NCBI GenBank assembly: GCA_037305845.1
Contig: CP147778.1
Coordinates: forward strand, 1,216,001-1,280,000
Reading direction: 5' to 3'
Source: Candidatus Freyarchaeum deiterrae
GTDB taxonomy: Archaea > Asgardarchaeota > Jordiarchaeia > Jordiarchaeales > Jordiarchaeaceae
DNA length: 64,000 nt
The notes under the pieces are model-generated. The model saw nothing but the letters and a program-made list of their open reading frames with translations. It was not told the DNA's origin and ran no database searches. Positions 31,474 through 40,863 of this stretch are shown in pieces. Position numbers and translations under genes: made by a program. The stretch's first letter is position 1; every line of letters starts with the position of its first letter.

Positions 31474-33426
31474 ATGAGTGAAAATGAGAAAAAAGCATCG
31501 GAAGTTGCTATCGGTGTCTACGTTTGCGAATGAGGCATTAACATAAAAAGCGTCGTTAACTGCGAAGAGGTAGCAGAATTCGCCAGTAAACTACCCAACG
31601 TAAAAACAGCGAAAACCTATTCATTCTTCTGCTCAGACCCCGGACAGAACATAATAAAGAAAGACGTTGAAACTCTAGGAATAAACAGAGTTGTAGTAGC
31701 ATCCTGCACACCAAAAATACATGAGCCGACCTACAGAGCCCTACTCGAAAGAGCGGGGATAAGCCCCTACTACTTCCAGATGGTTAACATCAGGGAACAG
31801 TGCTCTTGGGTACACTACAAGGATCCTAAGGAAGCCACGGAGAAAGCAAAGCAACTGGTCGCTGCCGGAGTAGCTAGAGCACGACTACTTGAGGATGTTC
31901 CTCAAAGGAAAGTGAAGGTCGAACCGGCGGTGCTTGTTGTCGGAGGCGGAATAGCGGGAATAAGCGCGGCGCTTACCATCGCAAATCACGGGCTGAAAGT
32001 GTATCTCGTTGAAAGGAAACCCACCATAGGAGGCCTAGCAGCTCAGCTTGACAGAACCTTCGCTACCGACGATTGTGCTATCTGAATATTGGCCCCGAAA
32101 ATGGTTGAAGCCTCTAAACACCCAAACATTAAACTTTACACCTACACCGAAATCAAAAAGGTAGCCGGAAGCCCAGGTGAGTTCGTGGTCACACTGCTTA
32201 AGAAACCAAGGTACGTAGACGAAACCAAATGCACGGGCTGCGGATCATGCACTGAGAAATGCCCCGTTGAGGTGCCCGACGAGTTTAACTATGGACTCGG
32301 AACCAGAAAAGCGATTTACATACCCTTCTCCCAAGCTGTGCCAAAAATTGCTCTAATATCAATGGAAGACTGCAGTCAGTGTAAATCCTGCCAACGCCAG
32401 TGTCTCGCGGGTGCAATAAACTACGACCAGAAACCTGAGGAGATCGATATCAAAGTGGGAGCAATAGTGGTAGCATCAGGAACAGAGGTATATGATGCAG
32501 CGAAGTATGGAGACTATGGCTACGGCATCTATGAGGATGTCATAACGCAAGCTGAGCTTGAGCGAATGCTGAACCCCACAGGTCCCACAAGCGGACGGAT
32601 CCTCAGAGTGTCCGACAGAAAAACGCCTAAACGCATAGTCATGATCCAATGTGTTGGATCAAGGGACGTGAAAAAGAACGCCTACTGCTCAGAAGTTTGC
32701 TGCATGGTAGCTTTAAAAAACGCCAAACTCATAAAACAGGAACACCCCGAAGCCGAGGTGACAATTTGGTACATAGATATACGAGCGGTAGATGAAGGCC
32801 ACGAAGAGTACTATAGAAGAACCAGAGAATACGGAATAAATTTCATCAGGGGAATGCCCGAAGTCTCATTCAACGGTAAAAGCCTAGTGGTTGAAGGTGA
32901 AAACACACTCACAAATGAATTCGTGAGCATGGAGGTCGACCTAATCGTTCTCTCCACGGCAATGGTCCCATCAAAAGCGGGAACAGAACTCGGTAAAATC
33001 TTAGGCCTTGATAAGGCTGCCAGCGGTTTCCTGAAACCGTTGCACACAGGACTCAGTCCTCAAGAGACAAAGACCCGCGCAATCTTTATCTGCGGTACGG
33101 CACAGGGCCCGAAAGACATATCCTACTCTGTCTCCTCAGCCAGAGCAGCAGCCTCAGCAGCAACAGCTTGGTGTCTAGCTGGCGAGGCCAGTCTTGAGCT
33201 AATAACCCCTGTGATCATAGAGGAACTATGCGTTGGTTGCAAGAGGTGCGAGAGAAGCTGTCCCTTTGGAGCCATAAAGGTTATCGACGGTGTCGCAAAA
33301 GTGGATGAAACGATGTGCAAGGGTTGTGGAATCTGTGTCGCTTCCTGCCCCGCACACGCATTGGATCTCAGATATTATCGCGATAAACAAATACGAGAAG
33401 AGGTAGCAGCTACTATAAAAACTTAA
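31474..33426 (+). CDS. hdrA: Heterodisulfide reductase subunit A, selenoprotein with two Sec (TGA 31531-31533 and 32083-32085), 650 aa
   Basis: GGAGGTGG RBS and ATG 31474; single frame GVYVCE-U-GINI...CSDPGQ...SCTP...NIREQCSW...GGGIAG...DDCAI-U-ILAPKM, ferredoxin motifs, QCVGSRD, CSEVCCM; both TGAs fall at conserved Cys positions. Confidence 0.93.
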
Positions 33427-33427
33427 G

Positions 33428-33503
33428 CGTCCTTATGCCTAATGAGTCCATCAGCAAAAGCCCTGCCTGGTGGATGAAAGCTCTGGTAGCAACCAGAAGG
33501 ACG
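33428..33503 (+). promoter_or_regulatory. Eukaryote-like SECIS element for hdrA
   Basis: AUGA 33442-45, 9-bp helix GUCCAUCAG/CUGGUGGAU, apical AAAA, GA 33476-77, enclosing helix CGUCCU/AGGACG, extra hairpin UCUGGU/ACCAGA. Confidence 0.82.
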
Positions 33504-33545
33504 AAAAACAATTATTTAAAAAAAGTGTATGTTGGAGGAAAACAG

Positions 33546-33974
33546 TTGACCTATCAAGTTGTGATGTATGCGTGTTGGAAATGAGGTTATGGAGCAGCCG
33601 ATCTGACAGGTGTTTCCAGACTATCGTACGATACCGCTATTAGAATTGTCCGTTTAAGGTGCACCGGACGACTTGACAGCTCACTACTGCTTGAGCCAAT
33701 TTGCAATGGCGCAGATGGTGTAATGGTAGTCGGATGCCATATCGGCGAGTGTGACTTTGAAAAAGGAAACATTATGGCAGAAAAACACGTCAAATTTGTT
33801 AAAAGAATACTTGAGAGACGCGGACTCGGCGGAGATAGAGTAAACATATACTATTGTTCAGCAGCTGAAGTCGGCCGATTCAAAGAATCCATTGATGACA
33901 TGATGAAGAAACTTGAGAAGCTTGGACCCAACCCCATACGCGAGCAAAAAATAATTACGGTTACCCCTGAATGA
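33546..33974 (+). CDS. mvhD: MvhD/VhuD [2Fe-2S] subunit, selenoprotein (TGA 33582-33584)
   Basis: GGAGG RBS and TTG 33546; MTYQVVMYACWK-U-GYGAADLTG...RCTGRLD...GADGVMVVGCHIGEC..EKGN...SAAE..F. Confidence 0.92.
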
Positions 33975-34039
33975 TTCCGAATCAGTAAATCTCGAAAGGT
34001 TCGGAGGACAATCCTCGTAAGCGGAGGATTAGGTAACTG
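33958..34039 (+). promoter_or_regulatory. Eukaryote-like SECIS element for mvhD, overlapping its stop codon
   Basis: AUGA 33971-74, 9-bp helix UUCCGAAUC/GGUUCGGAG, apical AAA, GA 34007-08, enclosing helix CGGUUACC/GGUAACUG, extra hairpin AAUCCUC/GAGGAUU. Confidence 0.8.
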
Positions 34040-34071
34040 TACTGCAAGTTATTTGAACGGAGGATAAACAA

Positions 34072-35520
34072 TTGGTAAAAAATTTGAAGGACGAACTGGA
34101 TGCAACATTAGAAGCCGTAAACAGTTTCAGGGTACGCGCATGGTTAGAAGGAGAAAAAGAAATTCTTGAGTGCGGCAAATTAACACATGAGGAATGGGAA
34201 AAACTCCTAGATTATTTTGTAGACGATGAAACAGAGCGAAGAAAAGTTTTGATAACTCTAAAAAAGTTAGGGAATGCGACTTTACCCCAACTAGAACAAG
34301 AATTAGGAATACCTAATTTTAATATTAGAAAGCACCTCCGACTTTTGGAATACGAAAAGTTAGTTGAAAGAAGTGATGAAAGTAAGGGTGATTCTGAAAC
34401 AGTCTATAAACCCGCTTTAAAGTCGGAACTGTCAAAAACCCCTTATGAAAAAATCAAGTTTATTGTGGATGAAAAGCTCTGCGCAGACTGTGGAGCTTGC
34501 GTAAGCTTTTGTCCGGTTAATGCAATAACAATTGTGGATGAAGCCCCCGTAATTGATGAGAACAAATGTATTGGATGTGGAATTTGCAACTATGTAGCCT
34601 GCCCCAGAACTTTCCTTTTTCTGGACCTTATGAGAGATTATATAAAGGGGGCGTCCTGCAATCTGGAGCAGGAACCTATAGCATCTTATAAAAACGCGTT
34701 CTCAGCCCAAACTAAAAGGGAAGAAATAAGAAAGGTTTGCCAAGATGGAGGCATAGTCACATCTCTCCTAACCTACCTTTTTGATCATAAATTGATAGAT
34801 GGTGTTTTAGCAGTTAAAAAGACGGGAGAAAACTGGGTATCGGAACCCGTCGTCATAACAAACAAAGAGGAACTGCTTCAAACAGCAGGTACAAAGTACG
34901 AGGTTACCCCCACGCTTGTTGGACTTGAAAAAGCCAAAAAAATGGGGCTTAAAAAAATTGCTGTAGCGGGAACCCCCTGCCAAATTCAAGCGGTTAGAAA
35001 GTCCCAAGTCTTTTCAGACAGGTTACAAGAACTCATGGGTGACATCGCATTTATAATAGGAATATTCTGTATGGAAAACTTTGCGTATCAGACTATGAAG
35101 AAAATTTCTGAGGAGTACTGCAAGGTTAGCCTAGAAAACGCCCGTAAGATGGACATAAACAAGGGGCAATTCTCAGTACATTCCAAAACAGGCGAAAAGA
35201 CATCGGTACCAGTTAAAGAGGTAACAAGCCTAGCGAGAGAAGCTTGCCACATATGCCCAGACCTTACAAACGAGCTCGCAGACATATCAGTGGGCTCCAT
35301 TGGATCGCCACCCGGCTGGTCAACTGTCCTCATTAGAACAGAAAGAGGAAAGGAAGTTTTTCAAAAGGCTCAGGATGAGGGATACCTGACCTCAAAGCCA
35401 TTGGAGGAAGCGGAAACAGGATTACCCATGGTGATAAAACTAGCAAAAGGGAAAAGAAAAAGAAACCTGGAAAAACTAGAATCTAAAAGAGCAGAGGGAA
35501 AATATGCCACCTGCTTTTAA
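34072..35520 (+). CDS. FrhB/FdhB-family F420-binding oxidoreductase with N-terminal wHTH and ferredoxin domains
   Basis: CADCGACVSFCP, CIGCGICNYVACP, QDGGIVTSLL, AGTKY, GTPCQ, GIFCMENF, CHICPD..NELADISVGSIG. Confidence 0.9.
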   Translation: MVKNLKDELDATLEAVNSFRVRAWLEGEKEILECGKLTHEEWEKLLDYFVDDETERRKVLITLKKLGNATLPQLEQELGIPNFNIRKHLRLLEYEKLVERSDESKGDSETVYKPALKSELSKTPYEKIKFIVDEKLCADCGACVSFCPVNAITIVDEAPVIDENKCIGCGICNYVACPRTFLFLDLMRDYIKGASCNLEQEPIASYKNAFSAQTKREEIRKVCQDGGIVTSLLTYLFDHKLIDGVLAVKKTGENWVSEPVVITNKEELLQTAGTKYEVTPTLVGLEKAKKMGLKKIAVAGTPCQIQAVRKSQVFSDRLQELMGDIAFIIGIFCMENFAYQTMKKISEEYCKVSLENARKMDINKGQFSVHSKTGEKTSVPVKEVTSLAREACHICPDLTNELADISVGSIGSPPGWSTVLIRTERGKEVFQKAQDEGYLTSKPLEEAETGLPMVIKLAKGKRKRNLEKLESKRAEGKYATCF

Positions 35521-35567: not shown

Positions 35568-36839
35568 TTATTTTAGTTCTACTTCAAATTCGCAGTATTC
35601 GTCTCCCTTTGCTATGCACTTTGTTTCTCTGCACTTCCACTCCTTCTTTGTGGCTACCTGAAGAGTTCCGGCAAGAGCCCCCTCAATAAAAGTGCATACC
35701 GGATAATCCGAGTGACCGTATGATAAAGCGATCGTAGAAATAAAGGTTAATTTTAGTTTGCCCTCGTCAATACTTCCTTCCATTGAAAACGGTCTACCCC
35801 ATCCTGTGACCGTGATATATTTTATAACTTCTTCTAAGAGTTTTTTGTTGTTTATCTGGCGTTCAGATTCAATAAAACTGGATACGCTTATTCCCACACG
35901 TAAACCCGAATCGAAAATTATTCGTCGATACTCTTCATAGATGAGTAAACTTTTCATGGTTTCAAGAGGTAATGTGAAAACCTGTATTGGAGCGATGACA
36001 TGATTCCAACCGAACAACGAAACTTGTCCTAATTCGTTAAACGACATACCTTCTTTCAACTCATCAAAAGAGTCGTACAATGGGAATAGTGTGATGAAGT
36101 TGTCATGGGTGAATAAATACGCAAGTCTCTGATTCAGAATTTTATGAGCTTCACTCACTAAAGGAGTTCTTGAAACATGTACGTATGATTGCTTTTTATC
36201 ACCGATTGTTTCAAATCCAAGGTTTATTGCATAATCAACAAGGTGATTTAATGTGTTAATTACCTGTGGTTCATGAACATCACGATTTGCTATTCCTAAA
36301 AGTATACCGCCTTCTCTTTTAGTATCCATGGTTAGTTTTCGAATCATCTTTAAAACAGTTTTCGAATCGAAGTCAATAATTGAAGAACTTATATTTGCAT
36401 AAATAACAAGTATTGTTAGGTCTGGAAACAGCTGTTTGATTTGGTTTTTTGCGCCGTTTATTTCATAAATAATGCTATTTAGGTCATTCGCTATCCCTCT
36501 AATATTTTTAATACTACTATAGGTAGCGTTGGTTTTATTTTCGCCTGAAACCAAATCCAAGTAATAGAACCTGCCATCGTTTATAGAATTTTGAAATGCT
36601 GCATTCTTCTCATCGGAATAATTCTTCTTAAACTGCCTCTGAACTATATTGAAGGGCAAATTTGTATTAATAGTTATAACCGCCCCACCCTTCTCCACAA
36701 AATTCAAAGCAAGTAAGCCCGCAAGCCTATTTGCATCGTTTAGTGAAAAGGAATCAGAAGCCAACAAAATTGACAAACCATCATACAGGCGCCCTAAAGT
36801 TTTATCAATGTAATCAATTCCCGTTTTACGAATCTTCAA
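35568..36839 (-). CDS. Inactive KaiC/RecA-like domain fused to V4R domain (paralog 4 in transcription order)
   Basis: KTGIDYIDKTLG start, LNHLVDYAINL; V4R GWG...PVC...ETKCIAKGDEYCEF. Confidence 0.8.
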   Translation of the reverse strand: MKIRKTGIDYIDKTLGRLYDGLSILLASDSFSLNDANRLAGLLALNFVEKGGAVITINTNLPFNIVQRQFKKNYSDEKNAAFQNSINDGRFYYLDLVSGENKTNATYSSIKNIRGIANDLNSIIYEINGAKNQIKQLFPDLTILVIYANISSSIIDFDSKTVLKMIRKLTMDTKREGGILLGIANRDVHEPQVINTLNHLVDYAINLGFETIGDKKQSYVHVSRTPLVSEAHKILNQRLAYLFTHDNFITLFPLYDSFDELKEGMSFNELGQVSLFGWNHVIAPIQVFTLPLETMKSLLIYEEYRRIIFDSGLRVGISVSSFIESERQINNKKLLEEVIKYITVTGWGRPFSMEGSIDEGKLKLTFISTIALSYGHSDYPVCTFIEGALAGTLQVATKKEWKCRETKCIAKGDEYCEFEVELK

Positions 36840-36937
36840 AACTAATCCCTCTCTCAATCCATTAAAAAACAAGTAATATAAATATTATCTTTTTTCCATT
36901 GGTAGATAAATAGATAGAACACCAAATTCGCGAATAC

Positions 36938-38209
36938 TTATTTTTCAACTTCTGCTTCAAATTCACATAACTCATCACCAGTCGCTATACAGTTTGTTTC
37001 TCTGCAAAACCACTTGTTTCCTGTAACGCCTTCTAAAATACCTGCCATAATGCTCTCAAATATCAGACTAACTTTATGATCAGATTTTCCGTAGTAAAGT
37101 GCAAATGTTTCAAAATAAGATATTTTGAGTCTACCAGACTCTAGACTTCCCTCCTTTTTGATTAGTCTTCCCCACCCTCGAATTAGTATATGGTTTATTG
37201 CTGCGTCTAGCAATTCATTTCCCTCTAGGCCATATTCTGATCTAAATAATTTTGTAATTTCCAGACCCACCGCTTTACCGAAATTTTTTATGAATTCTCC
37301 GCATTCATTTATTTCCAAATTTTTCTCAAGCTCTTTATACAATAATAAGAAAGTGTTTAGAGGTATAATCAAATATTCTATATTATGGATTGAAAGTGCT
37401 CCGCTCTCCCGATAAGAAATACTTCTTTTCAACTCATCAAAAACTGGAGCCAGAGAGGGAATTGTTGAGAAATTATTTTCAGAAATGGTATAAGCATATC
37501 TTTGTTGTAAATTTGTTATATTTGACTCTAAAATTGGGGATTTCAACACTTGAATATATGGTTGTTTTACTCCTCCATTTTCTACCGAACTGAGTTCTAC
37601 TACAAAGTCCGCAAAGTGCATTAATGTGTTTATTACGCGGTAATCATGCAAGTCGCGATTAACGAAGCCAGTGATAAGATATCCTTTTTGCTTTGCATTT
37701 GTTGTCAGCTTTCTAAACATTTTTAAAACGGGTCCTGGGCCAAAATCAATGATGGAGGAACTAAAATTCTGGTACGAAACCAAAACGGGGGTTTCTGGAA
37801 AACTTTTTTTGATCTGATCCCTTAAAAAAAGAATTTCGTACATGATTTTATTCTGATCGTTATTTATTCTGATTATACCTTTAAGATTATTCAAATCCTC
37901 CTTGGAAGCTTCCTCCGAAGCGATATCTACATAGTAAAACCTACCTTCATCCAAACTTTTTTCTAAAAAAGGAAGTTCTTCCGCCGCAAACCTACTTTTA
38001 GTATCATCAAAAAGCATGGAAAATGGTAGGCTTGTACTTACAAAGATACAACCTGCTCCTTGTTTAATGTGGTTTAGATTAATTAAATCGCAGAGAGTTA
38101 TCGTATCGTTGAGAGTCAAAGAATCGCATATGAACAATATTGAAGTACATTCATCTAGATTGCCCAGAGCCTCGTCTATAAAATTTATTAAAGTTTTTTC
38201 TATCTTCAA
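36938..38209 (-). CDS. Inactive KaiC/RecA-like domain fused to V4R domain (paralog 3)
   Basis: LMHFADFVVEL, PYIQVLKSP; V4R GWG...ETNCIATGDELCEF. Confidence 0.8.
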   Translation of the reverse strand: MKIEKTLINFIDEALGNLDECTSILFICDSLTLNDTITLCDLINLNHIKQGAGCIFVSTSLPFSMLFDDTKSRFAAEELPFLEKSLDEGRFYYVDIASEEASKEDLNNLKGIIRINNDQNKIMYEILFLRDQIKKSFPETPVLVSYQNFSSSIIDFGPGPVLKMFRKLTTNAKQKGYLITGFVNRDLHDYRVINTLMHFADFVVELSSVENGGVKQPYIQVLKSPILESNITNLQQRYAYTISENNFSTIPSLAPVFDELKRSISYRESGALSIHNIEYLIIPLNTFLLLYKELEKNLEINECGEFIKNFGKAVGLEITKLFRSEYGLEGNELLDAAINHILIRGWGRLIKKEGSLESGRLKISYFETFALYYGKSDHKVSLIFESIMAGILEGVTGNKWFCRETNCIATGDELCEFEAEVEK

Positions 38210-38244
38210 ACATATACCTCATTAAGTTTCAATTCATGAATAGT

Positions 38245-39531
38245 TCACTGATTTTCAATAAGCTTCAATTCAAATTTGCATTTTTTGTTTCCCATGGCGA
38301 TACATTCCTTTTCCGTACAACTCCAACTGAGTGAAGTAATTTCTTTCAAGATTCCTTGAAGAATTCCTCCTTCCAACACGCAAACAGGATAATCGGATTC
38401 TCCATAATTAGCCGCAAATATAGAAAAGGCTTCTAAAGTTATCCTTTTGGATTTAATATTTCCCTCCAAAATGTTGAACTTACCCCAACCGGTAATTGAG
38501 AGGTGATTTAATGCAGCTTTAAAAAGTTCTTCGGCGTTTAGATCAAATTGGGGGGATAATGCTTTTATGATAAGTGTTCCTATCGAACCACCTACCCTTC
38601 CAATTATTTTAGTGTATTCGCTTTTTCCAAGTTTTTTTTCAGACTCTTTTAAGAGATGTAGTAAACTCCATATTTCGATAATAACATAATTTGTACCGTA
38701 AGCGGTGACCTCTCCTCTTTCAAGATAGGAAATATTTTCCTTTAACTCTTCGAAGGTTGTAGGAAGAGAGGGGATTGTATAAAAGTTATCTTCCGAAATT
38801 TCATAAGCGATTTTTTTGTAAAGGCTTTTTTCGGTGTCCTTCAACAGGGGAGTTCTATTTACTGACACGTAGGGTTGCTTTTTACCGCCGAGTATATCTA
38901 TTCCAAATTCAAGTATATAATCGGTAAAGTGAGTGATGGAATTGGTTACATTCTGCTCTTGCATTTCTCGATTCAAGATACCAAGAAATAAATCACTCCC
39001 TTGCTTAACATTCAAAATCAGTTTTCTTATCATGTTTAATACGACTTGAGGCTCAAAATCCACAATCAGGGAACTGATATTTGTGTGTAAAATTAGAACG
39101 GGGGCGTCTGAAAAGATTTTTTTGATTTGATTCTTTGCATTTAAAATTTCATACACTATTCGAGGAGGATCATTTACAACTTCCGTTATAAACTCTGAAT
39201 AATTGAACTTCTGGGTACTAACGGTTTCCTCTACAACAATATTAAGAAAATGCAATCTCCCTTCATTCATAGCCTTCTGAAGAATAAGCCTTTTCGCGGG
39301 CGATTGAAAATATAATGTTTCATTTACCGCCAAAGAGAAGGGAAGATTTTCATAAATAAGAACGCACCCCCCACCCTTTTCCAAAATGTTCAACGCTATT
39401 AAACTTCCAAGCTTCTGAGCATCATCTGCCGTAGCTGAGTCCGTGGAAAACATTATGGGTAAACCATCATAAAGAACACCGAGGGTTTGATCCACAAATT
39501 CTATTCCAATGTTTTGAATTTTCAATTCCAC
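38245..39531 (-). CDS. Inactive KaiC/RecA-like domain fused to V4R domain (paralog 2)
   Basis: GIEFVDQTLG, ITHFTDYILEF; V4R GWG...PVC...EKECIAMGNKKCKF. Confidence 0.8.
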   Translation of the reverse strand: MELKIQNIGIEFVDQTLGVLYDGLPIMFSTDSATADDAQKLGSLIALNILEKGGGCVLIYENLPFSLAVNETLYFQSPAKRLILQKAMNEGRLHFLNIVVEETVSTQKFNYSEFITEVVNDPPRIVYEILNAKNQIKKIFSDAPVLILHTNISSLIVDFEPQVVLNMIRKLILNVKQGSDLFLGILNREMQEQNVTNSITHFTDYILEFGIDILGGKKQPYVSVNRTPLLKDTEKSLYKKIAYEISEDNFYTIPSLPTTFEELKENISYLERGEVTAYGTNYVIIEIWSLLHLLKESEKKLGKSEYTKIIGRVGGSIGTLIIKALSPQFDLNAEELFKAALNHLSITGWGKFNILEGNIKSKRITLEAFSIFAANYGESDYPVCVLEGGILQGILKEITSLSWSCTEKECIAMGNKKCKFELKLIENQ

Positions 39532-39591
39532 ATCTCCTCAGAATAGGCAATAAAAGATAATCTGAAGTTGTTAAAAAAAATTAATGTTTGT

Positions 39592-40863
39592 TCAGGATTC
39601 TATCTGAGCCAATTCAAACTCGCAGTAATCATCGCCCATAGCTATGCACTTTGTTTCCTTACAAACCCATTTTTTCCCCGTGATTTCTTCAACAAGTCCC
39701 AGCAGGCTGCCCTCTATCAATACATCCACGGGCTTGTTTGATTTATCCCATTTTTCAGCTAGTGACGAATGGACCCGAATTTTTATTTTACCAGATTCAA
39801 GAGTTCCCTCAATACTTAATAGCCTACCATAGCCTCTAGCACCGCCGTACTTAATAGTTAACAGCAGTAAGCGATCATCTTTTATTTTGAATTCAGATTC
39901 AACCGCTCTAACGTTTTTGACCACAAATTCTCTACCTAGTTCTAAAATCGTTTTTCTATATAGTTCGTAATCAATATTTTTTTCCATGGCTTTTAGAAGT
40001 TCCGTTGTAAATTGGACTGGAAGTACAAGGTTTTGGGTTCCTAGTATTGAAACCTCTCCTTTTTGATAAAAAACCTGCCCATCTTCTAATTCATCTAGGT
40101 AGAAAGATATGGGTGAAAAGGTTTCAAACTTGTTCCCAGAAATGTAATATGTAAGTTTTTTAAACAGAATTCTTTTAGAAAATCCCACTATTGGTGTTTT
40201 AGTGACTTGAAAATAAGGACGCGGTGAATCGCCCTTTAATTCTAATCCAAACTCACCAGTATAGCTCGAAAATTGTTTCAGGATATTTGTTATTTCCGAT
40301 TCATGAACATCTCTGTTTACCAGCCCGATAAAGATGTCACTGTCCTGTTTTATTTTCGCAATCAGTTTTCGTAACATCTTTAAAACAGCTTTTGAATCAA
40401 AATCAATTATGGAAGAGCTTATATTATGATACAAGACAATAATTTTAGAATCAGGAAACTTCTCCTTAGTTCTATCCATTGCTTGGCTAGCTTCGTACAA
40501 TATCATATCCAAATCGTTTTTAACCAGTTTAACGCCACTAACTTCAGTTTTACCGGATTGCCCTTTATTAGATGTTAAATCTAGATAAGTGAAACGCCCT
40601 TCATTCATTGCTTTTACTAAAGCAGGAAATTTCTCAGGCAGAAAAAGTTGTTTAAATTTTTGACGACCTAAAAAATAGGGTTCATCTGTTTGAACTGCCA
40701 CGCAGGACATCCCCTGATCTATCAAATTAAGGGTAACTGACAGACTAAGCATCATCGCGTCGTTTAGCGTAGAAGAGTCTGCAGTAAAAAGCAGCACCTG
40801 CCCTCCGGAAATTTTACCCAAAGAAAAGTCTATAACGGGTATCTTAGTATCAATTACCTCCAA
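39592..40863 (-). CDS. Inactive KaiC/RecA-like domain fused to V4R domain (paralog 1)
   Basis: TKIPVIDFSLG, NRDVHE; V4R GYG...ETKCIAMGDDYCEF. Confidence 0.8.
   Translation of the reverse strand: MEVIDTKIPVIDFSLGKISGGQVLLFTADSSTLNDAMMLSLSVTLNLIDQGMSCVAVQTDEPYFLGRQKFKQLFLPEKFPALVKAMNEGRFTYLDLTSNKGQSGKTEVSGVKLVKNDLDMILYEASQAMDRTKEKFPDSKIIVLYHNISSSIIDFDSKAVLKMLRKLIAKIKQDSDIFIGLVNRDVHESEITNILKQFSSYTGEFGLELKGDSPRPYFQVTKTPIVGFSKRILFKKLTYYISGNKFETFSPISFYLDELEDGQVFYQKGEVSILGTQNLVLPVQFTTELLKAMEKNIDYELYRKTILELGREFVVKNVRAVESEFKIKDDRLLLLTIKYGGARGYGRLLSIEGTLESGKIKIRVHSSLAEKWDKSNKPVDVLIEGSLLGLVEEITGKKWVCKETKCIAMGDDYCEFELAQIES

Follow-up and report, generated by a model that had tools for sequence, protein, structure and literature searches.

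The closest described relatives of the RNA elements discussed here are the lokiSECIS (PMC4989117), which correspond to the type I eSECIS-like elements of Asgard archaea (PMC11227280). They have an AUGA/GA core with a 9-bp stem and an A-rich apical loop, and the texts of the two papers describe one stem-loop plus a lower stem. The search of Huang, Xiao and Zhang (2024; PMC11227280) used the core, the upper stem and the loop, and its text reports no conserved flanking nucleotides. A 2026 review of SECIS still presents two hairpin models. In methanogens, minimal SECIS hairpins without a side hairpin are active in vivo, and the part essential in vivo is a GAA/A bulge with G-C clamps (PMC11881835). 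A lokiarchaeal SECIS, with a predicted energy of -6.9 kcal/mol, was inactive when tested in M. maripaludis. As for the proteins involved, archaeal SelB does not bind the SECIS and no SBP2 is known in archaea (PMC11881835, PMC9499178); according to published work, this partner of the eukaryotic SECIS has not been found in Asgard archaea. The core, its overlap with stop codons and the presence of eukaryote-like SECIS in Jordarchaeia and Freyarchaeia are already published. What is new is a side hairpin, called P3 below, conserved as a third arm in Asgard groups and methanogens and left out of the published models as their texts give them.

The window, a stretch of 64,000 nucleotides, corresponds to C1:1216001-1280000 of a single-contig genome of 3,576,204 bp from a Jordarchaeia (Freyarchaeia) Asgard archaeon, the SelD of which clusters with those of Ca. 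Jordarchaeum madagascariense and of a Jordarchaeales MAG (tree support 99/97). The order at the locus is hdrA, element 1, mvhD, element 2 and a frhB-like gene. The gene for the heterodisulfide reductase subunit A selenoprotein, hdrA (31474-33426, plus strand), forms a single frame when TGA is read through, ends in UAA and contains in-frame UGA codons at 31531-33 and 32083-85. FAD and Fe-S domains were found in its product, and its paralogues in the same genome are either stop-free at those positions or have the identical UGA. The mvhD/vhuD selenoprotein gene (33546-33974, plus strand; PF02662, E 3e-40) has an inferred TTG start, preceded by a Shine-Dalgarno-like GGAGG read from the sequence (33534-33538, plus strand); relatives retain this motif, and in them an in-frame stop directly precedes the TTG. 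Its Sec codon, the UGA at 33582-84, aligns to residue X (the Sec position) of the Sec-type VhuD chain in PDB 9sfi_K, and its stop codon, the UGA at 33972-74, is the UGA within the AUGA core of SECIS 2. The mvhD frame continues at 33940-33974 through the 5' strand of the closing helix of that element to the core UGA, and the mvhD genes of five same-genus genomes end earlier, at UAG or UAA upstream of SECIS 2. The downstream FrhB/FdhB-family gene (34072-35520, plus strand) has no in-frame UGA. Beyond it, the minus strand of the window (35568-40863) appears to encode four paralogues in tandem, each about 425 aa long, in which the N-terminus is KaiC/RAD55-like and the Cys-rich C-terminus is V4R-like.

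The host genome encodes SelD with a UGA, EFSec, SepSecS, a PSTK-like gene with match scores under the family cut-off, and two L7Ae-family genes. A tRNA-Sec-like gene with a UCA anticodon and an insertion in the T-arm was located by pattern search; neither ARAGORN nor the Rfam tRNA-Sec model gave a match to a tRNA-Sec gene. At the gathering score, the Rfam SECIS model has no match in the window, where only a tRNA match was returned. UGA-containing genes with a conserved Cys/Sec position, elements at their 3' ends and the Sec machinery occur together, which is the context of lokiSECIS and Asgard type I elements. Judged by their position, by this machinery and by their agreement with the published core, both elements are almost certainly SECIS for UGA recoding, one element each for hdrA (two codons) and mvhD (one codon).

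Some other features of the tRNA and selenoprotein genes deserve mention. The window segment 11916-12040 has a tRNA-like Rfam match with two insertions of about 26 and 30 nt, is missed by ARAGORN and is probably a tRNA with two introns. The host selD (C1:2457962-2458894; L001) and loci L053-L061 carry an insert of 30 nt that forms a hairpin, contains an in-frame UAA and has a relaxed bulge-helix-bulge fold; it looks like an mRNA intron. An internal stop or a split match occurs in all 10 of the class genomes having a selD match. A Jordarchaeales mvhD paralogue (L017, L019, L021, L022, L024) has a hairpin insert of 21-22 nt right before the Sec codon with bulge-helix-bulge-like flanking arms, and its 22-nt versions break the frame unless removed; the insert is a candidate intron in a selenoprotein gene. 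Lastly, a decayed mvhD copy lies at C1:2752979-2753245 (minus strand), with TGA, TAG and TAA inside the match.

SECIS 1 (hdrA) spans 33428-33503 on the plus strand, and its predicted fold is kept in six same-genus and five Jordarchaeales genomes. It consists of a closing helix P1 (33428-33/33498-503), a mini-helix (33437-40/33478-81) and an upper stem P2 (33446-54/33467-75). The core is formed by AUGA (33442-45) and GA (33476-77), with a 3-nt bulge at 33441-43 and the G.A/A.G pairs at 33444-45/33476-77, and the apical As lie at 33456-59. The side hairpin P3 (33482-33497, plus strand; stem 33482-87/33492-97) has the loop AGCA, with G-C-A at 33489-91; it is the consensus hairpin of alignment A3, with the loop G and C invariant. 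SECIS 2 (mvhD), at 33956-34041 on the plus strand, overlaps the mvhD stop and is conserved across the class. Its helices are P1 (33956-65/34032-41), the mini-helix (33968-69/34009-10) and P2 (33975-83/33998-34006); the core contains AUGA (33971-74), GA (34007-08), the bulge (33970-72) and the core pairs (33973-74/34007-08), with the apical As at 33987-89. Here P3 (34011-34029, plus strand; stem 34011-16/34024-29) has the loop GUAAGCG, with G-C-G at 34021-23.

In both cases the minimum free energy fold is a three-way junction, at -27.8 kcal/mol for element 1 (z -3.24; equalled by 0 of 200 shuffles) and -26.9 kcal/mol for element 2 (z -2.44; equalled by 2 of 200), and the pair probabilities of P3 are mostly 0.9-1.0. 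The apical loops are of 12 nt, starting CAAAA, and of 14 nt, starting AGUAAA, respectively. The original prediction had assigned to both elements an enclosing helix, AUGA, a 9-bp helix, an apical A-run, GA and a 3' side hairpin, and all of these were located where claimed. It had also stated that the stems differ while pairing is retained, which agrees with the two junction folds and with a stem identity of 10 of 42 positions (24%), about chance level. Two details had to be adjusted. The 9-bp helix has nine positions in both elements, but the first is the 3b-3n position of the kink-turn, which is often non-canonical in relatives (U-U in 23 of 101 Asgard elements); and both elements are present in the span 33428-34039, although element 2 reaches a few bases past its end. 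The mini-helix under the core, the G-Y-R loop of P3 and the identity of the UGA in the AUGA of element 2 with the mvhD stop were missing from it.

To follow these elements in relatives, the 3' ends of mvhD, hdrA and selD genes that contain Sec were collected in the host class and in 220 genomes sampled from the phylum. The groups include Jordarchaeia, Borrarchaeum, Atabeyarchaeia and Helarchaeota; the families f9/f23 and f7 are taken to be Lokiarchaeia and Thorarchaeia on the strength of cores that fit the published accounts (a 9-bp stem with an 11-nt A-rich loop ending in G, and a selD GUGA core). A descriptor and per-family alignments were used in place of an Infernal model, since cross-lineage MAFFT alignments misplace P2 and P1. 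Cores were chosen by the published criteria alone and P3 was scored afterwards, as a hairpin with a loop ending in G-Y-R. Such a P3 accompanies 101 of the 110 automatically parsed Asgard cores (92%) vs 9.4% of dinucleotide shuffles, with 13 further regions without an automatic core left out of the 110. Of the nine misses, four arose from misplaced cores, where a P3 can be seen by eye; in the others the loop is GCU or GCC or the stem is very short. The control selD 3' ends (n = 63, mostly Cys-type) yielded one core and none with P3. In a held-out vhuU set, scored by the same P3 rule at a slightly lower core threshold, P3 was found in 25 of 29 elements, one of the positives (L258) being a misparsed hairpin with a GCU loop. 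Judged from these sequences, the P3 arm is conserved and common to six Asgard groups.

The same arm was recovered from alignments. For the f7 selD family, RNAalifold unaided predicts P1, a 3-bp mini-helix, P2 and P3, that is, the whole four-helix junction; 94% of the cells are paired, vs 31-46% in slid controls, and 15 of 22 pairs show two-sided changes (four of the five in P3). In f9 selD, 98% of the cells are paired and all five P3 pairs have two-sided changes. The whole-structure covariation scores of both families were reached by 0 of 500 shuffles. Alignment A2, a mixed mvhD set that includes element 2, has 91.7% of P3 cells paired and two-sided changes in four of five pairs (0 of 500 shuffles). 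The P3 of f9 mvhD is weakly supported: it has only 2-4 bp, centred on two conserved C-G pairs, and is absent from the RNAalifold prediction. The nine-position upper stem P2 also covaries in relatives, and the loop G of P3 is invariant in four MAFFT alignments built without the motif. The shuffle counts overstate significance and are not probabilities, because the genomes are related and hence dependent, so that P3 is better supported by the recurrence of the arm in different gene families and lineages. Given the compensatory changes, P3 is very probably a selected part of the SECIS element. That the side hairpin would recur behind related selenoprotein genes and that its pairs would covary, as expected from the original prediction, is borne out by the counts given above and by the f7 selD, f9 selD and mixed mvhD alignments.

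Two other groups came up in this survey. Bathyarchaeia-labelled selD genes (L129, L135, L162, L181, L206) have a UGA at the Sec position, and no Asgard-type core with a side hairpin occurs among the parseable ones. A Hodarchaeota-labelled contig has a three-armed element behind a Sec-type selD, yet its protein cluster mixes Helarchaeota and Promethearchaeota labels, and the arm is not claimed for Hodarchaeales.

When the full architecture was used as a descriptor on both strands of the 3.58-Mb host genome, six matches were obtained, five of them directly 3' of UGA-containing selenoprotein genes; the reversed genome gave no match and the complemented genome one. The sites are the two window elements and those of selD, of a HesB-like gene and of an hdrA-mvhD fusion, the sixth being judged false. 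The full descriptor is therefore very specific. A clear P3 was seen in six of the seven Sec-linked elements detected in this genome. The vhuU element has the same three-armed fold with the core UUGA, and the exception belongs to a Sec-peroxiredoxin (C1:583050-583573, minus strand; L124), the 3' element of which has long helices and an A-rich loop, no AUGA/GA core and a vestigial P3 of 2-3 bp. The second hdrA, at C1:6000-8360 on the minus strand, is fused in frame to mvhD and has four in-frame UGAs and one three-armed SECIS. The small HesB-like gene (C1:775968-776420; L123, L259-L269), without a Pfam match, has an in-frame UGA and a three-armed SECIS, and homologues with TGA occur in all 11 class genomes. 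This selenoprotein, recovered by the descriptor, lies outside the seven Asgard families listed in the text of PMC11227280.

The geometry around the core is regular. The G.A/A.G core is followed below by a bulge of 3 nt, usually AAU or GAU, and then by a mini-helix of 2-4 bp; with the bulge taken as 3 nt, the mini-helix has at least 2 bp in 83% of the elements, vs 21-23% with the bulge taken as 2 or 4 nt. In 98 of 101 elements the pair adjoining the bulge forms, with four main pair types. The tandem G.A/A.G core, the 3-nt bulge and the mini-helix together identify a standard kink-turn. P3 branches off the non-bulged strand, with its loop G 7-15 nt from the core. P1 is present in 80 of 101 elements, and in 64 of these 80 the gap between P3 and P1 is 0-1 nt. 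In the remaining 21 of 101 elements P1 was not found, and it was not seen in the mvhD and selD elements of Jordarchaeales or in the majority of those behind Borrarchaeum mvhD. With P1 missing in some lineages, the constant element of the design is P3, and the closed junction is its usual form. The G-Y-R loop variants include GCA, GCG and GUG, and GCU and GCC loops also occur. No partner for this loop was found inside the element, where mutual information over 108 column tests gave small values and no complementary pattern.

The arm extends to methanogens. A pattern scan of metagenomes returned 14 vhuD loci with a protein near-identical to 9sfi_K (E 1e-78) and a SECIS with the GAA/A motif, which on these grounds are treated as Methanococcales. 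Their vhuD elements contain AUGA, a mini-helix with A-U/G-C covariation and a P3 with a GUG, GCA or GUA loop; several have a long P1, with z -6.3 for one. P3 pairing reaches only 77% in the MAFFT register, because the loop lengths differ. Of the distinct hdrA elements of this type, five of seven pass the P3 rule, and a GCA-loop hairpin is present by eye in six of eight vhuU elements, though these lack AUGA. The elements behind a fwuB-like gene at these loci have no P3. A SECIS of its own follows hdrA in the Methanococcales-type loci and likewise in the window, at ten related loci of Jordarchaeia and at three of Borrarchaeum.

The likely explanation for all of this is a three-armed SECIS with P3 as a second recognition surface and an ancestral arm. 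The functional unit would then be larger than the published hairpin, namely a standard kink-turn placed in one arm of a three-way junction, with P3 abutting P1 and probably stacked on it, as in k-junctions. An L7Ae-family protein may bind the kink-turn, and the kink would hold the apical A-run and the G-Y-R loop of P3 in a set arrangement, forming the second surface, to be read by an archaeal SECIS-binding factor or by the ribosome/EFSec complex. Such a putative role for P3 is slightly favoured. P3 would raise recoding efficiency and might be dispensable; because the minimal methanogen elements are active without it, it may tune efficiency, for example in multi-UGA transcripts.

A different role is that P3 and P1 are a folding scaffold only, which stabilizes the kink-turn hairpin and lets it refold once ribosomes terminating there have left, with the loop kept as a stable GNRA-like turn. 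With the junction, the folding energy is about three times that of the core alone (-28 to -30 vs -10 to -12.5 kcal/mol), the stop codon is the core UGA in 33 of 91 non-hdrA elements, and many loops read GCAA or GCGA. However, a plain GNRA tetraloop fits part of the set only, because the base after G-Y-R is A in just 61 of 101 elements and 0-6 extra bases are allowed 5' of the G, and the G-Y-R motif is retained where P1 has been lost, so that a scaffold without a recognized loop is considered unlikely. Alternatively, the loop might pair in trans with an invariant 5'-UGC-3' of rRNA or tRNA-Sec and tether the SECIS to the ribosome. GCA, GCG and GUG are all able to pair with UGC, wobble included, and the triplet always adjoins the 3' strand of P3; but the target is putative, three base pairs are weak, GCU and GCC loops exist, and the variant spectrum is partly circular as the parser required G-Y-R. 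This tether is quite improbable.

Less probable still is that the side hairpin is a separate mRNA signal for 3'-end protection, processing or termination that happens to lie beside the SECIS. It would suit the location at gene ends and the retention of P3 in methanogen vhuU elements with a degenerate kink-turn core, but P3 lies inside P1 in 80 of 101 elements, its distance from the core GA is 7-15 nt, and Cys-type selD genes show no enrichment of it (9 of 211 GA positions). A terminator in particular was rejected, as there is no U-tract and no match in a terminator scan that models bacterial signals only. Finally, short hairpins are common and the false-positive rate of the parser is 9%, and yet a chance fold or a curiosity of one genome is refuted by the 92% occurrence, by compensatory changes in several independent alignments and by the presence in a second phylum, leaving it practically no probability.

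Returning to the three-armed SECIS with an ancestral arm, sequence comparison points to an arm that was probably present in the ancestor of the archaeal hdrA/vhuD/vhuU SECIS and has been retained by Asgard archaea and Methanococcales; the SECIS models for eukaryotes lack it. A more tentative and rather doubtful extension holds that archaeal SECIS began as a kink-turn junction with three arms, the third bearing a sequence-specific loop read by the SECIS factor or the ribosome, that the methanogen SECIS, with GAA/A on top, and the eukaryotic SECIS, which lack the arm and have SBP2, are two reductions of it, and that the failed lokiarchaeal construct was arm-less. The energy of that construct suggests as much, falling in the range modelled for a lone hairpin and far from the full window elements; incompatibility with the host is an equally likely explanation of its inactivity. 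The third arm with its conserved loop represents a new candidate contact for SECIS-to-ribosome signalling in archaea.

Among known systems, the two elements resemble the lokiSECIS and Asgard type I elements most directly: both have AUGA and GA, a 9-bp stem (7-15 in the model), apical As and a loop within the 8-20 nt of the general 2024 model. LokiSECIS themselves have GA or AA, lie near the stop codon, which AUGA sometimes supplies, and serve hdrA, vhuD, vhuU and selD. The strict 2016 form differs, with an 11-nt loop ending in G, whereas the window loops of 12 and 14 nt end in C and A; likewise, Loki hdrA-vhuD pairs share one SECIS and the window hdrA has its own. The texts of PMC4989117, PMC11227280 and PMC13188914 contain no description of P3, its loop motif or the junction, although figures or supplements might show part of them, and none of the arm was found in the texts of open-access papers on SECIS combined with three-way junction, k-junction or lokiSECIS. 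The original prediction had proposed a structurally distinct SECIS variant. The three-way junction is real and covarying, but families matching the published lokiSECIS carry the same arm, and the three-armed form is therefore the fuller form of a known element.

The eukaryotic type I/II SECIS share the AUGA/GA kink-turn core, the apical adenines and the 3' UTR position, and differ in a longer helix 2 and in a plain internal loop in place of the mini-helix and P3. Their models have no such arm, as had been supposed. The k-junctions (PMC4005666, PMC10573300) also have tandem G.A/A.G pairs, a loop on the bulged strand and a third helix on the non-bulged strand that adjoins the closing helix, and the 0-1 nt linker between P3 and P1 is compatible with the coaxial T and C helices of k-junctions, which are further marked by cross-strand hydrogen bonds and a kink induced by ions or protein. 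At the level of secondary structure and covariation, the tandem pairs and the third helix on the non-bulged strand are both found in the Asgard elements; there, however, the three bulge bases are unpaired and a helix of 2-4 bp separates the core from the branch point. The L1/L1.1-paired form of the k-junction leaves two bases unpaired, and in the Asgard set the mini-helix goes with the 3-nt bulge (83%) rather than the 2-nt one (23%). As modelled, the Asgard fold fits best with a standard k-turn beside the branch point, k-junction-like but not a riboswitch-type k-junction.

The Methanococcales vhuD/hdrA eaSECIS (Mariotti 2016; Huang 2024; PMC11881835) have AUGA with GA or AA and a short extra stem, which equals the mini-helix, and to these the present analysis adds P3, often P1, and separate SECIS for hdrA and vhuD. 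They differ in the GAA/A bulge with G-C clamps atop P2, present in the methanogen homologues and absent from both window elements, which have an open A-rich loop there. Relevance to the archaea-to-eukaryote transition, which had been inferred for the window elements, was not upheld: as Methanococcales-type SECIS of hdrA, vhuD and vhuU have this arm too, an old archaeal feature is more likely than a step specific to that transition. The Asgard SECIS would thus be less eukaryote-like than they have been drawn, and closer to the vhuD and hdrA elements of methanogens.
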